From Gammaproteobacteria bacterium (GTDB lineage Bacteria; Pseudomonadota; Gammaproteobacteria; GCA-002705445; GCA-002716945): 41,126 nt of DNA. The translations under genes were made by a program, and so were the position numbers. The notes under the pieces are model-generated. The model saw only the letters and a list, made by a program, of their open reading frames with translations, ran no database searches and was not told where the DNA came from. This document shows, piece by piece, positions 11,898 through 41,053 of this stretch; within the stretch, counting starts at the first letter, position 1; each line of letters opens with the position of its first letter. The stretch covers positions 1 to 41,126 of the forward strand of contig JBJKYE010000038.1 in assembly GCA_045561195.1 (NCBI GenBank), written 5' to 3'.

Positions 11898-13468
11898 GAG
11901 AGAGATTTCTTAAATTTATAGCCAAGGATATACATTGAAATAATATAAACTAATCCGCCCATAATGATATATAAGCCTAGCAATAAGCCCCTGATATAAT
12001 ATTCATTTTTAGCAAGCTCTATTGGTTCAATTAAAATACTTCCTAAAATCACCAACATTATTATACAACTTACTATTGAAATAAATGGCTCTTTATTAAA
12101 AATATTAGAGTTATAGATTACTTCATCTTTTTTTAATCTCAAGTATAGCAAGATCACCTGAATCCAGGCAGACAAAGATGTTGCTAAAGCTAGCATGGCA
12201 TGCGCCCCATCAAAGGGATTAGATAAATAATACAGAACAACTATCGTATTCATGAATATGTTAAATGCTACAGCTATCAGCCCATACTTAACTGGCGTTT
12301 TAGTATTTTGTCTTGAGAAAAAACCTGTTAGCAAAACTTTCATTAAGATAAAAGCTGGCAAGCCAAGAGAATAAGCCACTAAACTAAGAGAGCTCATATT
12401 TGTATCATTGTTGGTAAAACTTCCATACTGGAATAGACTCATGATTATATGATCAGATAACAGTATTAGACCAAACATTGCAGGCAGACTAAAGATCAAA
12501 ACAACTTTTAATGAATTAGATAAGGTATTTTTAAAACCAATCATATCCTTTGAGGAATATTTCGCAGATAAAAGAGGCAAGATAACTGTTGCAATTGCAA
12601 TACCAAATACACCTAAGGGAAATTCAACCAACCTGTCTGAATAATAAAGCCAGCTTATACTGCCTGGGGCTAGCATTGATGCGACAATAGAATCCACAAT
12701 CAAATTAATTTGAACAACAGCAGTACCCACTATTGCGGGTAGCATCAATTTAAGGACTTTATTGACGCCAATGAAACTAAAATTTATTCTTGGCATCACT
12801 AGAAGGTTCATCTTGTATAGGAAAGGCAGCTGAATAAAATATTGAATTATTCCTGCAATTAAAACACCATAAGCTAGAGACATTATAGGCGTATAAGACA
12901 AATGAGAAGAATATATAGTTGCAGTTATCAGGGATATATTTAGAAGAACTGGTGTAATTGACGGCAGCAAAAACTTATCATATGTATTAAAGATTCCTGC
13001 ATACATCGCAGTTAATGAAATAAAGAATAAATAGGGGAAAGTAATTTTTAGCATATCAGAAGCAAGTGCATACCGTATATCATATTCAGTAAAACCAGGT
13101 GCAAAAATATTAATAATATTCTCTGAAAAAACTATCCCTAATAGAGTTATAAAGAATAATATTAATCCAAGATTACCTTGTATGTAACTAATTAATTTTT
13201 TCACCTCTAAGGGTTTTGTCGTTTTGTACTCATTTAATATAGGGACAAAAGATTGAATAAATGCACCTTCAGCAAATAATCTTCTAAAAAAGTTTGGGAT
13301 CTTAAATGCAACGAAAAAGGCATCTGTATTAGAGGATGCTCCAAATACATTTGCGAAAATAATATCCCTTATAAATCCAGAAACCCTGGATATAAATGTC
13401 ATCCCACCTACTATAAAAGATGATTTAACTACAGAATTCCTAGTATTTGCCTTGTTTTGGTCGATCAT
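11894..13468 (-). CDS. murJ: Lipid II flippase MurJ (MviN)
   Basis: SRVSGFIRD, DAFFVAFKIPNFFRRLFAEGAF and YYSDRLVEFPLG motifs. Confidence 0.96.
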   Translation of the reverse strand: MIDQNKANTRNSVVKSSFIVGGMTFISRVSGFIRDIIFANVFGASSNTDAFFVAFKIPNFFRRLFAEGAFIQSFVPILNEYKTTKPLEVKKLISYIQGNLGLILFFITLLGIVFSENIINIFAPGFTEYDIRYALASDMLKITFPYLFFISLTAMYAGIFNTYDKFLLPSITPVLLNISLITATIYSSHLSYTPIMSLAYGVLIAGIIQYFIQLPFLYKMNLLVMPRINFSFIGVNKVLKLMLPAIVGTAVVQINLIVDSIVASMLAPGSISWLYYSDRLVEFPLGVFGIAIATVILPLLSAKYSSKDMIGFKNTLSNSLKVVLIFSLPAMFGLILLSDHIIMSLFQYGSFTNNDTNMSSLSLVAYSLGLPAFILMKVLLTGFFSRQNTKTPVKYGLIAVAFNIFMNTIVVLYYLSNPFDGAHAMLALATSLSAWIQVILLYLRLKKDEVIYNSNIFNKEPFISIVSCIIMLVILGSILIEPIELAKNEYYIRGLLLGLYIIMGGLVYIISMYILGYKFKKSLS

Positions 13469-13546: not shown

Positions 13547-13810
13547 TTGGCAAATACACCACAAGCAAGAAAAAGAGTTAGGCAAGCAGTTAAGGCTCGA
13601 ACAAGAAATGCTGCTCAGAAATCTAATTTTAGATCTAGCATCAAGAAGGTTCTGAAATCTTTGGCTGAGAAAAATAAAGATCAATCCAATGCTAATTTTA
13701 AAGAAGCTATGTCTATAATGGATAAATTAGTTATCAAAGGTTTAATCCATAAAAACAAAGCAGCTAGACACAAGTCACGTCTTAATAAACATATACAAAA
13801 ATTATCCTAG
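13547..13810 (+). CDS. rpsT: 30S ribosomal protein S20
   Basis: ANTPQARKRVRQ...GLIHKNKAARHKSRL. TTG start at 13547 follows a GGAG RBS; divergent from murJ. Confidence 0.97.
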   Translation: MANTPQARKRVRQAVKARTRNAAQKSNFRSSIKKVLKSLAEKNKDQSNANFKEAMSIMDKLVIKGLIHKNKAARHKSRLNKHIQKLS

Positions 13811-18410: not shown

Positions 18411-18511
18411 ACAGTTTTACCATATACACTAAAAAAATTTTATGTGTCCATGATTTCATTTTTTTATTAATAATTCAAAGGCTTTATATTATTTTAGTAA
18501 ATGCTCCAATT

Positions 18512-18527
18512 TGGCACACTTTGTGCA
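18512..18527 (+). promoter_or_regulatory. sigma54 (-24/-12) promoter of amtB
   Basis: TGGCACACTTTGTGCA has exact GG-N10-GC spacing. Predicted +1 ~18538, just before RBS AGGAG (18542). Confidence 0.85.
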
Positions 18528-18554
18528 TGTATTTGGACAACAGGAGATTTAAAA

Positions 18555-19856
18555 ATGAATATAATTACAAATAGGATATTTACATTATTTACGTTAATTG
18601 GTATTGGTTTATTACCTAATATTGGTTATGCGGAAAATTCTGAACTTTCTGGTGCTAACACGGCCTGGATTTTGACGTCTACAGCTTTGGTGTTATTTAT
18701 GACGATACCAGGTTTAGCATTTTTTTATGGAGGATTGGTTAGAAATAAAAATGTATTATCCGTTTTAATGCAGTGCTTTGCATTGACATGTCTAGTATCA
18801 ATAATGTGGGTTGTTGTTTTGTATGGATTAGCGTTTGGCGACGGTGGCTCTTTAAACTCAATCATTGGAAGCTTTGATCAAATATTCATGTCAGGTATAA
18901 CAAATGAGAGTTTAAGTGGAGATATTCCAGAATCAGTCTTCGCGATGTTCCAGTTAACATTCGCAATTATAACTCCAGCACTAATAGTTGGTGGTTTTGC
19001 AGAGAGAATGAAGTTTTCTTCTATGCTTCTATTTAGCACTCTTTGGATGTTGTTTGTTTATGCTCCAATATGCCACATGGTATGGGGCGGCGGATGGCTA
19101 GGAAATCTTGGGGTTATGGACTTTGCAGGTGGAACTGTTGTTCATATTAATGCTGGTATTGCAGCATTAGTTGCAGCAGTAATGCTAAGAGAAAGAAAAG
19201 GTTTTCCTTCGACTCCTATGCCGCCACATAATCTAACTATGACTGTTGCCGGTGCATCTATGTTATGGGTTGGATGGTTTGGGTTTAATGCCGGTTCTGC
19301 ACTAGCAGCTGACCAATCTGCTGGTATGGCAATGCTTGTAACTCATATTGGTGCAGCAGCAGGTTCTTTATCATGGATGGGCAGAGAATGGATGAAGCAA
19401 GGTAAACCAAGTGTCCTGGGTATAGTTACAGGTATGGTAGCTGGCCTTGGAACAATTACTCCAGCATCTGGTTTTGTTGGACCAATGGGAGCATTATTTA
19501 TTGGTGTATCCGCAGGATTAATTTGCTATGAGGCTACACAATATATTAAAAAAGTCCTCAAAATAGACGATTCTCTGGATGTTTTTCCAGTTCATGGAGT
19601 AGGTGGAATTCTTGGTACAATATTGACTGGAGTATTTGCATCAGCAAGCTTTGGAGGGATGGGTCTCGAAAACTCAATAAGCACGCAAGTATTTATACAA
19701 ATTATTGGTGTTGTGTTTACTATTATATGGTGTGGGTTCTTCACATACATAATTTTAAAATTGGTTGATAATCTTTTAGGTTTAAGAATTTCAGAAGAAG
19801 AAGAGGAAACTGGAATAGACTTAGCAGAACATGGTGAAAAAGGATACAATAACTAA
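18555..19856 (+). CDS. amtB: Ammonium transporter
   Basis: DFAGGTVVHINAG, LWVGWFGFN and DDSLDVFPVHG, with both pore His residues present. Start set to the ATG at 18555 after the AGGAG RBS. Confidence 0.97.
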   Translation: MNIITNRIFTLFTLIGIGLLPNIGYAENSELSGANTAWILTSTALVLFMTIPGLAFFYGGLVRNKNVLSVLMQCFALTCLVSIMWVVVLYGLAFGDGGSLNSIIGSFDQIFMSGITNESLSGDIPESVFAMFQLTFAIITPALIVGGFAERMKFSSMLLFSTLWMLFVYAPICHMVWGGGWLGNLGVMDFAGGTVVHINAGIAALVAAVMLRERKGFPSTPMPPHNLTMTVAGASMLWVGWFGFNAGSALAADQSAGMAMLVTHIGAAAGSLSWMGREWMKQGKPSVLGIVTGMVAGLGTITPASGFVGPMGALFIGVSAGLICYEATQYIKKVLKIDDSLDVFPVHGVGGILGTILTGVFASASFGGMGLENSISTQVFIQIIGVVFTIIWCGFFTYIILKLVDNLLGLRISEEEEETGIDLAEHGEKGYNN

Positions 19857-19864
19857 ACAATAAT

Positions 19865-19959
19865 ATAGTTAAAGCTAGGATTAGAGGGGGAGTTGCATAT
19901 AAAGATAACGCTTCTAACCTAGCTTCAACATATAAAAGAGGAGATTATTTCTTTTATAT
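19865..19959 (-). ncRNA. Candidate sigma54-dependent small RNA with two stem-loops carrying anti-SD loops
   Basis: Hairpin 1 at 19930-19959 (10-bp stem, loop AAUAAUCUCC). Hairpin 2 at 19872-19925 (AAGCUAGG/CCUAGCUU plus UUAGA/UCUAA, loop containing CUCCCCC). The 5' end coincides with the +1 predicted from a -24/-12 promoter. Confidence 0.65.
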
Positions 19960-19968
19960 ATAACTAAA

Positions 19969-19985
19969 TGCACAATTCATGCCAA
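19969..19985 (-). promoter_or_regulatory. sigma54 (-24/-12) promoter pointing toward the amtB 3' end
   Basis: Minus strand TTGGCATGAATTGTGCA (GG-N10-GC), sharing the TTGTGCA -12 element with the amtB promoter. Confidence 0.75.
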
Positions 19986-20053
19986 AACTAGTCAAAAGTA
20001 TTAATTATTATAAAATGTAGAAAATATAGATTATTTTGTGAATGTAAGCCTTA

Positions 20054-20806
20054 TTAAGACACCCTGATAACTTCAGTATCAAAACTACCATCATCATTTA
20101 GAGAAATTTTCCTATATCCTGGTAAAGCTTCAGGATCAATTATAAAATCCTTTGATTTCTCTTTAGCCTGATAGCATGTGGATGGTGTTGAAAAAAGTTT
20201 TGTCGATCCCATGTTAAGATTAAACTCATTGTGAATATGACCCCACGATACTGCCTTGATTTTATCGTATTTCATTATTCGATCAGTTAGTAATTCAGCA
20301 TTTTCTATTATCATGGAATCCATTGAAGCAGAACCAATTTGAACAGGGTGATGATGTAAAAATATAATAATATTTTCATATAACGTATTTGAAAGAACTT
20401 TGTCAAAACATACTAGTTCTTCGCTTTTAAGAAGTCCGTTAGGCGAGCCTTCTTTTTTTGTATTAAACATAAAAGCTCCCCAGTTATTAAAAGACTCAAA
20501 ATTTTTAAAAAAAATATTCTTATTATTTGATAAGGTTTTTAAGAGAGATGGAGAGTCATGATTGCCAGACATCAGGTAAATTGGTGTTTCAAAATCTTTT
20601 AACAGCTGCATTAGATGATCATAGGACTCTATAGAATAGTCATTTGAAAGATCACCACTTAAGATCAAACAGTCTATATTTTTTTCATTAATCCTTATAC
20701 TTTCTATAACCATATTAGCCGATTCAAAAGTATTAACACCATTACTGACTTTATCTTTCGATTTATTGAGATGAAGGTCTGTAATTTGAATTATTTTTGT
20801 ACTCAT
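20054..20806 (-). CDS. cpdA: 3',5'-cyclic nucleotide phosphodiesterase (CpdA/Icc metallophosphoesterase)
   Basis: QITDLHL, SGDLS, GNHD, LHHHP, WGHIH and TPSTCYQ. Confidence 0.85.
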   Translation of the reverse strand: MSTKIIQITDLHLNKSKDKVSNGVNTFESANMVIESIRINEKNIDCLILSGDLSNDYSIESYDHLMQLLKDFETPIYLMSGNHDSPSLLKTLSNNKNIFFKNFESFNNWGAFMFNTKKEGSPNGLLKSEELVCFDKVLSNTLYENIIIFLHHHPVQIGSASMDSMIIENAELLTDRIMKYDKIKAVSWGHIHNEFNLNMGSTKLFSTPSTCYQAKEKSKDFIIDPEALPGYRKISLNDDGSFDTEVIRVS

Positions 20807-30268: not shown

Positions 30269-33004
30269 CTAGTAATCAAATACATCTTGATACCCCAGAA
30301 TACCTTCTCTTAGTAACTCAGCAGTTTGATTGTTTGATGTTGCGATTCCTTTTGGTAAAAATTCAAAATAGAATGCATTATCAGATTTAGTACCATTCCA
30401 ATAATCTCTTATAACAAACTTTAATCCATAACAACAACTCTCATACTCAAAACCAAACATTTTCTCAATCATATCCTCTTCATTGCTTCGTCTGTTATTA
30501 AAAGAATAATTAATTTTACCCACTAATGATAACCTACTGTTAACTGGAATAACTGCAGAAAAATCAACCTCCTCTTGAGTGCCTCTTGAGAACCTGTAAC
30601 TAGAGTTAAATATCTGATTTTGCTTTCCATATGGTCTTTTATAAGATAATCTTATCTGATTTTTTTCACCATAACCTCTATGTGGATTAAATTCAGAATA
30701 TCCTGAAAGTCTCCAGTGGTCTGCTAATCTCGCATTGACTAAACCTAGTACGTTTGAGACGTTTGTATGACTTGTAACACTATCATTCAAATTTACGGAT
30801 CTATCATCGAGATAAAAAATTTGTCCTATGGTTCCTCTTAAAAGCTCATTACCATTAGATGTGTCAACAATACTTGATGTTAAAGCCAAAGTTAGTTGCT
30901 TTGCATCATTTAGTCTATCTTCGCCATAAAATTTATTCTCTGAAAACAAATTATATTTCAAATCATTTTCACCGGCATCAAAAATTGGAATGTTATCTTG
31001 ATTTGATGCAGGTATGTATAAAAAATACATTTCTGGTTCTAAAGTTTGAAAAATATCTTTAGTATGCATTTTGTCAAATATCATTTTACCTCTAAGGCTG
31101 AATATAGGTGTTGTATCAGAAATACTATTGTTGGAATTGCCAGAGAGACTATAAGATCTATGTTTTACACCAAATTTAGGAGTTATTTCCCAACCTATAT
31201 TTTTTATAGGGTATTCAACAGAGGGATATACTGTAAATCTTGTACCAGTAGCTTTATAGACATAAGTATGATCAAAAACTGATAATTCACTATTAACTTT
31301 ATAATTAAAATCATTATTTTTTTCATGACTTGAATATTCGAGTCTAGCTTGAGGTAGGACGCTATACTGTTCTTGGAGATCAGTTTTAACTAGTTGATAA
31401 TCTGTTGCCCTAATAGATGTATTTAAGCGGCCAAATTCACCATAATCTATTCTATCCATTTTAAACTCTCTAGTAATATGCGTTCTACCTATTCTTGATA
31501 CACTATTACCAAAGTCCTCAAGAAAAAATAAATCAGAAATCCCTCCAATATCTATTTTTGAGTTTATGAGAGAGCCAGCCCACAACCCATTATCATCCGC
31601 GACAAGAGTATTTTTATATACCCTATCGTCCCTCAGATAATATGCATGACGGCTTGTACCTTTAATGTCATCCTTGCTCATCTCAGAAAGCTGAATCTCA
31701 GTATTGCTATAATCTGTTTTGTAACGAAATTCACCATCTATCATCATACCTCTGCCGGAATAACTCGTTGGAGTTAATGTAAAGTCCATATTCTCTGCAA
31801 TATTGAAATAATAGGGAGTTGAAATAACAGTTCCGCTTTCACCAGAACTTCCAATTGATGGAAGTAGAAAACCAGTGTGCCTATCTTTACTTAATGGAAA
31901 ACTGAAAAATGGCGAATACAATATCGGCACATCTTTATATTTTAGAAGTATGTTATATGCATGACCCCTGTCTGTATCCCTATATAGAATAGTTTTAGAT
32001 GATACTATTTCCCAGTCTGGATCATCTAATCCACAGGTTGTGTAGCTACTAGGTGTTAAATAAATAATGCCATCATTATCTATAAATATATCTTCTGACA
32101 GCCCTCCACCCGGTCTCCTTTGAGTGGGAAATTTATATTTAGTAGTGGAGAATGAAACAGTATCATTTTGGCTATTATAACCACCTTTATTTGCATAAAG
32201 TGATAAATCTTCAGTTAAATATTTAACATTACCATCAGCTGCCAGAACACCTGTATCTGCATTGAAGACAGCCTTATCGGATTTTATTAAATCATCTGCT
32301 CTTTCAATTTCAACATTACCTGAAGCATAAAATATGCCATCTTCATCTTGATTTTGCTTGTCTGAGCGAACTTCTAGCGTATCTTCATCTGCATTAAACA
32401 AAGTCTTCTGTGACAGATAATCTTCAAATTCATCATCTATGCAAACAGGTAGTTTATTTTTTTTTATAGAGCTTAAATAGTCAGTTCTTTTCGCAATTAT
32501 AATTTCCTGATTAGCATTTTGTTCATCAACAGGTTTGATATTTTCGTCTATCGGAGCATTCGTATAATCACTTATAATTTCAGAGCCCATTTTCTTTATG
32601 AGTTTGTCTTGGTTATAGACTTCACCCACCTTTTCATTTTTAAATACTATTGTAATTCTTTTTGGCTCAGTAAAACCTTTTGCTGTTCTTTCGTAATAAA
32701 GATAGTCCCACCTGTCAACATGAAATAAATCAATGATTGAGGGACTTCCAAGCAAAAACCTTACTTGCTCTTTACTAAGGCCGGGTACGACTTTATTTAG
32801 ATTATCTATATCAAGTAGCACACCTTGTTCTATCGGAGTTTTATATGGTTTTGGTAACCAGCTTGGACCAGATTCAAGAAATTCAAGAATTTCTTCATCT
32901 GGCAGGGAGATACCGGGAGTTGCAGCAGCATGTGTATACATACTATTGAATAATACTAATATAATTGTGCTATGTATTAATCTTTTAATATATGGTCTAA
33001 ACAT
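30269..33004 (-). CDS. lptD: LPS assembly protein LptD with an N-terminal BamE (SmpA/OmlA) domain
   Basis: LptD motifs YTTC, PYYFNIAEN.D.T, LEPEMYFLYIP and YESCCY. Residues ~53-130 (PYKTPIEQG...GLSKEQVRFLLGSP...DRWDYLY) are BamE-like. Confidence 0.92.
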   Translation of the reverse strand: MFRPYIKRLIHSTIILVLFNSMYTHAAATPGISLPDEEILEFLESGPSWLPKPYKTPIEQGVLLDIDNLNKVVPGLSKEQVRFLLGSPSIIDLFHVDRWDYLYYERTAKGFTEPKRITIVFKNEKVGEVYNQDKLIKKMGSEIISDYTNAPIDENIKPVDEQNANQEIIIAKRTDYLSSIKKNKLPVCIDDEFEDYLSQKTLFNADEDTLEVRSDKQNQDEDGIFYASGNVEIERADDLIKSDKAVFNADTGVLAADGNVKYLTEDLSLYANKGGYNSQNDTVSFSTTKYKFPTQRRPGGGLSEDIFIDNDGIIYLTPSSYTTCGLDDPDWEIVSSKTILYRDTDRGHAYNILLKYKDVPILYSPFFSFPLSKDRHTGFLLPSIGSSGESGTVISTPYYFNIAENMDFTLTPTSYSGRGMMIDGEFRYKTDYSNTEIQLSEMSKDDIKGTSRHAYYLRDDRVYKNTLVADDNGLWAGSLINSKIDIGGISDLFFLEDFGNSVSRIGRTHITREFKMDRIDYGEFGRLNTSIRATDYQLVKTDLQEQYSVLPQARLEYSSHEKNNDFNYKVNSELSVFDHTYVYKATGTRFTVYPSVEYPIKNIGWEITPKFGVKHRSYSLSGNSNNSISDTTPIFSLRGKMIFDKMHTKDIFQTLEPEMYFLYIPASNQDNIPIFDAGENDLKYNLFSENKFYGEDRLNDAKQLTLALTSSIVDTSNGNELLRGTIGQIFYLDDRSVNLNDSVTSHTNVSNVLGLVNARLADHWRLSGYSEFNPHRGYGEKNQIRLSYKRPYGKQNQIFNSSYRFSRGTQEEVDFSAVIPVNSRLSLVGKINYSFNNRRSNEEDMIEKMFGFEYESCCYGLKFVIRDYWNGTKSDNAFYFEFLPKGIATSNNQTAELLREGILGYQDVFDY

Positions 33005-39904: not shown

Positions 39905-41053
39905 ATGAATACTTTTACTGACAAATTTATTTATAAGCATTTCCTATCAGTTATAGTGTTAATAATTGGTTTTAACATTAATGCTGCCCCGATTCCTAAG
40001 GCTCCAAACCCTGATGTTAAGTCATACATTTTAATCGATTATGACAGTGGAATGGTGATTGCTGAAAAAAACGCTGATCTTATTCTTCCTCCAGCTAGCA
40101 TTACAAAAATCATGACATCTTATATTATTTTCACAGAACTTCAAAATGAAACTCTAGCAAAAAGTGATTATGTTCTTGTTAGCAAAAAAGCATGGAAAAC
40201 TGGGGGCTCAAAGATGTTCATCGAAGTAGGAAAAAAGGTAAAGGTTTCTGACTTGCTCCAAGGAATTATCACCTCATCTGGGAATGATGCTAGTGTTGCT
40301 ATGGCAGAGCATATTTCTGGAGATGAAGAAACTTTCTCAATATATATGAATCAATTAGCTGAGAATCTAGGTATGGTCAATACTAGTTATGCTAATTCAA
40401 CAGGCTTGCCAAATGATGATTTGTTTACAACAGCTAGAGATATATCTTTGTTAGCTCGCTCATTAATAAAAAAATTTCCTGATGAGTATAAGTTATATTC
40501 AAAAAAAGAATATGTTTATAATGAAATTAAACAATACTCTAGAAATAAGTTGCTGTATCTAGATGACACTGTAGATGGGATGAAAACTGGTTATACTAAA
40601 AAGGCTGGTTATTGTCTTGTTAGTTCTGCTTTAAGAGGAAAAAAGAGATTAATATCTGTTGTTCTTGGTGCTAAATCGCCAGAACATAGAACTAATGCGT
40701 CAAAATCACTTTTAGAATATGGCTTTAGATTTTTTGAAACTCATAAGCTATATGAGCAAAATAAAATAGTAACTGAGGGTAATATTTTCGGAGGCTCTCA
40801 ACAGAAAATCAAGCTTGGAGTTCTTGACGATGAATACATATCTATTCCTAGAAGGCAAATAAAGAATATAAAAACTAAATATGTAATAGATCAAAATTTA
40901 ACCGCACCAGTACAAAAAGGTGAATCCGTTGGTTACGCTGTCATACAACTTCAAGGTAAAAATATAACTACTATTGAGTTATATGCCATGGAGTCGGTAG
41001 ATGAAGGCAGCTTTTATAGAAAAACTCTTGACTCAATATTGAGAAAATTTTAA
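39905..41053 (+). CDS. dacC: D-alanyl-D-alanine carboxypeptidase (PBP5/6 family)
   Basis: PASITK, SGNDA and KTGYT; extended -10 TG-A-TATAAT at 39886-39894. Confidence 0.9.
   Translation: MNTFTDKFIYKHFLSVIVLIIGFNINAAPIPKAPNPDVKSYILIDYDSGMVIAEKNADLILPPASITKIMTSYIIFTELQNETLAKSDYVLVSKKAWKTGGSKMFIEVGKKVKVSDLLQGIITSSGNDASVAMAEHISGDEETFSIYMNQLAENLGMVNTSYANSTGLPNDDLFTTARDISLLARSLIKKFPDEYKLYSKKEYVYNEIKQYSRNKLLYLDDTVDGMKTGYTKKAGYCLVSSALRGKKRLISVVLGAKSPEHRTNASKSLLEYGFRFFETHKLYEQNKIVTEGNIFGGSQQKIKLGVLDDEYISIPRRQIKNIKTKYVIDQNLTAPVQKGESVGYAVIQLQGKNITTIELYAMESVDEGSFYRKTLDSILRKF

Follow-up and report, generated by a model that had tools for sequence, protein, structure and literature searches.

The stretch of DNA analysed here (henceforth the window; 41,126 nucleotides) is contig C38 of a genome that we refer to as G000, an incomplete assembly (588 kb, 57% complete, 31.6% G+C) from an order comprising 37 species genomes of about 1 Mb each in six genera. 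Sequencing runs containing this stretch are of seawater or marine origin. We focused on the gap between an ammonium transporter gene and a phosphoesterase gene, whose synteny is maintained across the family, and on a candidate small RNA (sRNA) gene within it. The features concerned are as follows, with coordinates given in the window:

18511-18527, plus strand: sigma-54 promoter of amtB1 (TTGGCACACTTTGTGCA), found by motif search, with GTGCA half-sites upstream
18542-18549, plus strand: ribosome-binding site of amtB1 (AGGAGAUU)
18555-19856, plus strand: amtB1, ammonium transporter gene (Pfam Ammonium_transp, E 1.8e-119), convergent neighbour of the RNA candidate
19857-20053: gap of 197 bp between amtB1 and the phosphoesterase gene, which lie tail to tail
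19929-19868, minus strand: hairpin 2, whose long stem is closed at its base by CUAGG (19922-19918) / CCUAG (19879-19875); UUU comes next
19959-19930, minus strand: hairpin 1, a 10-bp AU-rich stem (19959-19950 / 19939-19930) with a 10-nt anti-Shine-Dalgarno-like (anti-SD-like) loop, AAUAAUCUCC (19949-19940)
19958 (+/- 2 nt), minus strand: predicted transcription start, 12 nt from C(-12) at 19970
19985..19969, minus strand: -24/-12 motif TTGGCATGAATTGTGCA, with GG at 19983-19982 and GC at 19971-19970
20054-20806, minus strand: metallophosphoesterase gene (CpdA-like, with a Pfam hit to Metallophos only; called cpdA in the preliminary description), read from the strand of the RNA candidate and lying upstream of it

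The preliminary description of this locus had placed in the gap a minus-strand -24/-12 promoter resembling that of amtB, and the motif is indeed there. It is built like the promoters of glnA, amtB1 and gcw-glnK in G000 and differs at one base over 21 from the promoter directly upstream of amtB2, the second amtB paralogue, in genus g4. Sigma-54 transcription starts about 12 nt downstream of C(-12), and this spacing rule gives the predicted start listed above; it had been expected at the foot of a 10-bp hairpin and falls one base inside the foot of the hairpin 1 stem. The description had also remarked that no glnK accompanies this amtB, which is true locally; genome-wide, a P-II gene (glnK) adjoins amtB2, elsewhere in the genome. 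This second nitrogen unit is seen on contig C15 of G000 (L046:1-1100, minus strand), where a sigma-54 motif, TTGGCATAGTTTATGCA, with a TGCACCTATTTTGTGCA palindrome upstream of it, is followed by a Gcw_chp (porin-like) gene and then, where the contig stops, by glnK; relatives have the amtB2 paralogue, which is about 35% identical to amtB1, after glnK.

We assessed how far such a motif can be taken as a promoter by counting its occurrences. When one mismatch is allowed, the motif is not rare (5 found in the window vs 2.8 expected), and three such matches inside long open reading frames (12590-12605, 32324-32339 and 40048-40063) are most likely chance. The strict form TTGGCAY-N6-TGCA, by contrast with its reversed control (0 matches), was found 60 times in the ten genomes of the genus, at 4-8 per genome and in every one of them. 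Intergenic strict motifs in G000 lie upstream of glnA, upstream of amtB1, upstream of the Gcw_chp-glnK(-amtB2) unit and in the studied gap. In the 99% complete genome G009, four of the five strict sites are intergenic, at the glnA, gcw-glnK-amtB2 and amtB1 positions and at an orphan RNA unit (the first two being named by position and ORF size, as Pfam was run in G000 only). A conserved strict motif also lies antisense within a small gene that looks TusA-like by eye, in two other genomes (L064, G004 C4:9321; L076, G001 C15:168169).

The proteins that would read these promoters are few. G000 has one rpoN gene (E 2.1e-61), and each of the five genus genomes checked has a single Sigma54_activat gene. 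The G000 activator carries Response_reg, Sigma54_activat (AAA) and HTH_8 domains, i.e., it is NtrC-like, and its gene lies downstream of glnA and of a HisKA kinase gene, on another contig than the window. With an NtrC-type response regulator as the sole activator that these genomes were found to have, synthesis of the RNA would be expected when nitrogen is limiting; responsiveness to nitrogen is thus suggested by the single activator per genome and by its place beside glnA and the kinase in G000. Dependence of the promoter-hairpin-hairpin module on NtrC and sigma-54 is, in our estimation, probable.

The RNA predicted to start at 19958 has a marked secondary structure. Folded as a 94-nt molecule it reaches -27.6 kcal/mol (z -6.2), and none of 200 shuffled sequences folds as well. 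The stem of hairpin 1 contains a single G-C pair; the hairpin is identical in the related genome G006, and in G007 both arms of its stem are shortened. The preliminary description had proposed two stem-loops presenting CU-rich motifs, and this stands in so far as both hairpins are present and AACUCCCCC (19894-19886) is unpaired; AACUCCCCC does not form a hairpin loop, as had been supposed, and is instead an internal loop on the 3' side of hairpin 2. The statement that no open reading frame follows the promoter agrees with our finding of none of at least 10 codons in the window copy.

Hairpins between convergent genes can be read in a different way, namely as mere 3'-end structures (terminators or exonuclease blocks) of the amtB and phosphoesterase mRNAs, beside a sigma-54 motif that is non-productive or a relic. 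We judge this improbable for several reasons, the first of which is that a simple terminator scan calls no terminator-like site in 19857-20053 and passes neither hairpin on either strand. An intrinsic terminator of amtB or of the phosphoesterase gene was rejected, the combination of a G+C-rich stem with a U run being absent from both strands. The U tail after hairpin 2 is UUU in the window copy and U6 in the G002 copy only, and for an independent sRNA gene this lack of a canonical terminator is a point on the negative side. We likewise rejected the CTAGG...CCTAG hairpin as a common repeat or terminator type: the pattern has 12 matches in the genome, of which only the window copy is both extended and intergenic.

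Conservation between G000 and G006 also speaks against hairpins that serve as mRNA ends alone. Neutral divergence between these genomes is about 22%, judging by fourfold sites in amtB (46 of 207 differ, 22%) and in the phosphoesterase gene (17 of 72, 24%). From the promoter to the end of hairpin 2, only 8 of 117 sites differ (binomial p 8.6e-6 vs 22%), and of the 22 aligned promoter bases beginning at -2 of the motif, 21 are identical. The sequence ahead of the -24 element differs at 18 of its 65 aligned sites, and after hairpin 2 the figure is 6 of 14, together with a 17-column indel. The onset of the conserved block is sharp and lies at the -24 element or just upstream of it, not at hairpin 1, and conservation that begins with the promoter is hard to explain by terminator hairpins alone.

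We then asked whether the module occurs elsewhere, reading 43 instances of the motif in the genus (41 further sites, and L054). Ten copies of the promoter-hairpin-hairpin module were found in eight of the ten genus genomes, one each in G000, G006, G007, G005, G009 and G002 and two each in G008 and G003 (marked a and b). They occupy five kinds of locus:

amtB1/phosphoesterase gap: copies in G000, G006 and G007
convergent gap between His_Phos_1 and DUF3050 genes: copies in G005, G009 and G008 (G008b)
gap facing an alpha-amylase gene: copy G003a
upstream of a DUF2721 gene on the same strand, 147-163 nt away: copies G003b and G002
beside a tRNA and a DsrC-like gene: copy G008a

The G002 copy is also divergent from amtB2, about 150 nt from that gene's own sigma-54 promoter. 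A combined promoter/hairpin pattern run over all 37 genomes gave nine matches, all in this genus, and none in reversed controls. Given that look-alike copies stand at other places in sister species, we interpret the module as most likely a small new RNA family rather than a chance motif; its presence at loci unrelated to amtB is, in addition, not expected of 3'-end structures of the amtB mRNA.

The copies share a common anatomy. The preliminary description had made conservation in relatives a point on which its proposal turned, and GG/GC at fixed spacing is intact in all ten copies while the flanks differ, a pattern that a relic promoter would not be expected to keep. In every copy the first base of the 5' hairpin falls somewhere from -9 to +2 relative to the predicted +1, the base of the 3' hairpin has the common form (A/G)NCYAGG...CCURG, and the predicted RNA is 80-101 nt long. 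All ten copies fold as a 5' hairpin followed by a long 3' hairpin (z -2.5 to -9.3), with CUCCUC-like and C-run motifs wholly or partly unpaired. The view that the promoter and the two hairpins behave as one conserved unit is thereby supported. The promoter motif was part of the query that led to nine of the ten copies, so that their having a promoter is partly by construction; the G005 copy was reached differently. A covariance model of the RNA part alone (R1), built from the three near-identical copies of G000, G006 and G007, had no significant match outside these three training genomes, and its best plus-strand match there, in G005, was weak (E 0.34). This match sits between convergent genes, 5 nt downstream of a perfect orphan sigma-54 motif, and is an independent case linking the RNA part to such a motif.

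With the covariance models and the combined pattern, we found no module in G001 (94% complete), in G004 (99%) or in the 27 genomes of the five other genera. A second model restricted to hairpin 2 (R2) recovered nine of its ten training copies, missing G003a, and had no match in other genera (139 candidates per genome scored); one extra match lay inside coding sequence and was rejected. Scanning metagenomes with the hairpin-2 pattern returned three contigs, each resembling one of three known variants and thus adding no new diversity. One alignment (A4) was left unused as it mixed true and junk matches.

The paired structure of hairpin 2 bears the mark of selection. In its ten-pair basal helix (alignment A5, which includes a partly misaligned G002 row), 94% of cells are paired and seven of the ten pairs have changed on both sides, vs 24-64% of cells paired in controls in which the partner was slid; none of 500 shuffles reaches the covariation score. 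No pair count is given for hairpin 1, since the full-length MAFFT alignments (A3, A6) misalign it, and its support comes from single-sequence folds.

Several further observations concern the distribution of the module. Species differ in how many copies they have and in where these lie, a trait also of 'cuckoo'-type sRNA families: two copies lie about 10.8 kb apart on contig C25 of G003 (2876-2976 and 13664-13776), and the two copies of G008 are on different contigs. The flank of the G008a copy is syntenic by eye with sequence that in G009 precedes a tRNA and DUF2721 and lacks the RNA (L083/L187), so the module resembles an indel of about 150 nt there. In G005, G009, G004 and G008 (L010, L012, L014 and L013), inspection by eye shows in the amtB1/phosphoesterase gap a hairpin that has the CYAGG/CCURG base, is CU-rich on its minus-strand side, stands without either the sigma-54 motif or hairpin 1 and was not recovered by R2; in G005 the phosphoesterase ORF seems to extend into it. 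A stem resembling hairpin 2 that stands in the same gap and has no promoter motif is what one would expect if these hairpins were mRNA ends. Either hairpin 2 is the older element, or the promoter and hairpin 1 were lost from the gap in these four genomes. Finally, an intergenic sigma-54 motif in G052 of genus g6 (L204:1500-1700) stands ahead of a 12-bp hairpin (GGATGCATGCAT...ATGCATGCATC) with UUUACUCCUCAUUU in the loop, and a small ORF beginning MSDYFICTICEKEF lies some 150 nt beyond; a remote counterpart of the RNA is one possible reading of this element, a leader another.

The arrangement of the copies raises a further possibility, i.e., that the promoter is active and its transcription acts in cis, by antisense read-through into the 3' end of amtB or by polymerase interference, the element forming at other loci a structured leader for the gene that comes next. 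Only weak termination signals follow hairpin 2, the copies in the window, G005, G009 and G008b face a convergent gene, and the same-strand position of G003b and G002 with respect to DUF2721 would suit a leader. The neighbours, however, vary by locus (amtB, DUF3050, alpha-amylase, DUF2721, DsrC-like), and the conserved parts are the unpaired CU-rich motifs of the RNA itself. An ancestral DUF2721 leader was rejected as an origin of the module, the DUF2721 genes of G006, G007 and G009 having other upstream sequence and no such leader. We consider action in cis about as improbable as a purely 3'-end role for the hairpins.

Transcript data for the locus consist of assembled, unstranded metatranscriptome contigs. 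One study provides a contig that matches 19434-19963 with 0 mismatches (depth 8.3), and another provides a contig of a G006-like variant spanning 19665-19958 (depth 13.6). Both run from amtB into the gap and are complete, ending at 19963 and 19958, where depth drops from 8-14 to about 1; a low-depth contig (2.95) covers 19845-20092, and we do not take the missing contig cover beyond 19963 as silence. The boundary near 19960 coincides with the predicted start of the RNA, which is a weak hint in its favour, and it fits equally well a 3' end of the amtB mRNA past both hairpins. Continuity of these contigs with the amtB coding sequence, and their ending just past hairpin 1, are indeed what hairpins that close the amtB mRNA would produce.

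A second point on that side is found upstream of the promoters. We searched for the half-site TGCAC/GTGCA, which we take to be an NtrC site, within 147 nt upstream of each promoter, and found at least one at all 22 gene-proximal promoters (amtB1 9, glnA-type 6, gcw-type 6, amtB2 1) vs two of the ten RNA promoters; the classes were set by position and ORF size (with Pfam in G000 only), and amtB genes by protein query or Pfam. In the window, no half-site occurs within 260 nt upstream of TTGGCATGAATTGTGCA, and the 65 nt upstream of its -24 element diverge at the neutral rate between G000 and G006. A promoter lacking enhancers may be weak or silent, and the absence of half-sites from eight of the ten RNA promoters is compatible with a motif that no longer works. 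In enterobacteria, sigma-54 sites have been reported between convergent genes that possibly do not fire (PMC3844500), which would also suit a silent motif between mRNA 3' ends. The same paper states that the AAA+ domain of an activator can activate without DNA binding (PMC3844500). Given that the cell would hold a single activator and that such activation is known elsewhere, firing of the RNA promoter at high NtrC~P without an enhancer is plausible by analogy. All in all, we hold it likely that the module is a real RNA gene.

Its unpaired motifs suggest how the RNA might act. The preliminary description had pointed to complementarity between AAUCUCCU and the amtB ribosome-binding site, which we find as described, with the last U already in the stem. 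Specific feedback on amtB, which had been offered as a possible role, found no backing in a ranking of motif-only duplex energies over 723 crude start regions of G000, where the amtB1 site ranks 35th for loop 1, 226th for the C-run and 101st for their sum. The corresponding ranks of glnA are 21, 78 and 34, and AGGAGAUU itself is present in three of the 723 regions. A ranking with the whole RNA was discarded in favour of the motif-only one since it ignored the RNA's own fold; neither singles out amtB or any other gene. The longest perfect complement between each RNA and the amtB1 site of its own genome is 13 nt for G003b, 10 for G003a, 9 for G008a, 8 for G000 and G009, 7 for G005 and 5 for G008b, while cross-species pairs are often equally good and the G003 10-mer is found at four other places too. 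Judged from the sequences, then, the pairing with the amtB site is of a generic anti-SD kind. Hfq, a potential helper, is present in all five genomes checked. We give slightly less than even weight to the proposition that the RNA acts by anti-SD pairing.

The sigma-54 RNA could be real and yet do something else: it might, for instance, serve to titrate a protein, or the copies of one subgroup might code for a small peptide. That no target stands out is in keeping with this, as is a frame of 28-29 codons shared by the copies of G005 (L054:1532-1618) and G008b (L177), which begins MMVKTRSNSSK... in the one and MIVKTRSNSSK... in the other and differs between the two by an in-frame indel of 3 nt. 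No obvious ribosome-binding site goes with this frame. The G009 copy (L057), close kin of that of G005, breaks it by a 1-nt insertion, however, and no ORF is common to the subgroups, the window copy having none of the length stated above; the family-wide CUCCUC and C-run motifs, moreover, are as expected for pairing with Shine-Dalgarno sequences. A function of this other kind strikes us as quite unlikely, slightly more so than either of the two alternatives above; the G005/G008b subgroup may carry a dual-function RNA.

We compared the anti-SD sRNA candidate with known systems. The preliminary description had called the RNA undescribed, and accordingly no Rfam 15 family matched the window at the gathering score; a permissive scan (E up to 1) of seven loci with family copies yielded no family, only a tRNA and two chance matches elsewhere. 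In the literature within our reach, i.e., outside subscription journals and supplements, we found no description of this RNA or of sigma-54 sRNAs in marine bacterioplankton. Among known RNAs, Qrr of Vibrio is a sigma-54-dependent sRNA, and NfeR1 of Sinorhizobium contacts ribosome-binding sites through a number of unpaired anti-SD motifs and is not known to be driven by a sigma-54 promoter. Apart from a presumed link to nitrogen, the window RNA resembles the alphaproteobacterial NfeR1 in its anti-SD-like motifs only, with no sequence or Rfam relation. NfeR1 is described as a nitrogen-responsive sRNA linked to NtrBC (PMC10746234).

A close parallel is with NrsZ of Pseudomonas, described as an NtrB/C- and RpoN-dependent sRNA in the ntrC-PA5126 gap, made of 1-6 repeated stem-loops with the loop motif ACAGGCAG, processed to pieces of about 40 nt and activating rhlA (PMC4253122). 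NrsZ and the predicted RNA have in common an orphan sigma-54 promoter in a tail-to-tail gap of nitrogen-regulon genes, a short, folded RNA whose loop motif is conserved, and modules whose number and position vary between species. Unlike NrsZ, the window RNA has two unlike hairpins with CU-rich motifs and lies at a different locus; identity with NrsZ was rejected, as the RNA sequence has no ACAGGCAG, the ntrC gene lies on a contig other than C38 and Rfam gives no match. GlmY/GlmZ of enterobacteria are likewise listed as sRNAs with sigma-54 promoters (PMC3844500). They and Qrr share with the window RNA the organisation of a small RNA gene with a -24/-12 promoter, and depend on an NtrC-family activator; they differ in their activators (LuxO for Qrr, GlrR for GlmY/GlmZ), in their signals (quorum and cell envelope, respectively) and in sequence and fold, and no Rfam match to them was found here. 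GlnZ, reported as an NtrC-controlled sRNA derived from the glnA 3'UTR (PMC9731577), is similar in that it is placed at the 3' end of a nitrogen-assimilation gene, but GlnZ is released from the mRNA of the same strand and lacks a separate promoter, whereas the window RNA lies opposite the amtB strand behind its own promoter motif.

In the mechanism that we infer, sigma-54 RNA polymerase under NtrC control would transcribe an independent sRNA gene from the TTGGCATGAATTGTGCA promoter, giving an RNA with a predicted length of about 90 nt and a predicted 3' end near hairpin 2 (minus strand, roughly 19958 to 19868). The loop of the 5' hairpin would display AAUCUCC, and the long 3' hairpin would leave the C-run CUCCCCC unpaired. 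Acting in trans, with Hfq available to help the pairing, both anti-SD-like CU-rich motifs would base-pair with the ribosome-binding sites of candidate target mRNAs and lower their translation. The module probably represents a new family of nitrogen-responsive sRNAs, and on balance we favour the full statement that it is a genus-restricted, sigma-54/NtrC-driven family of RNAs of about 90 nt that acts by anti-SD pairing. A more far-reaching scenario, which we put forward as speculative and rather unlikely in its entirety, is that sigma-54 and NtrC serve about four transcription units including this locus-hopping sRNA, which has shed its enhancers so as to fire only at very high NtrC~P; it would then be a threshold switch for severe starvation that damps mRNAs with strong Shine-Dalgarno sequences, amtB and glnA among them, through two anti-SD motifs resembling that of 16S rRNA.

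Streamlined ocean bacteria have very few regulators, and their regulatory RNAs are almost unstudied. If our interpretation is true, a non-coding RNA would account for one quarter of the sigma-54 regulon that can be recognised in this lineage, and the response to nitrogen starvation would include an inexpensive post-transcriptional arm. The lineage is uncultured, and its abundance suffices for it to show up in many seawater metatranscriptomes. The family would also offer a natural set of enhancer-less sigma-54 promoters that can be compared with enhancer-bearing ones in the same genome.
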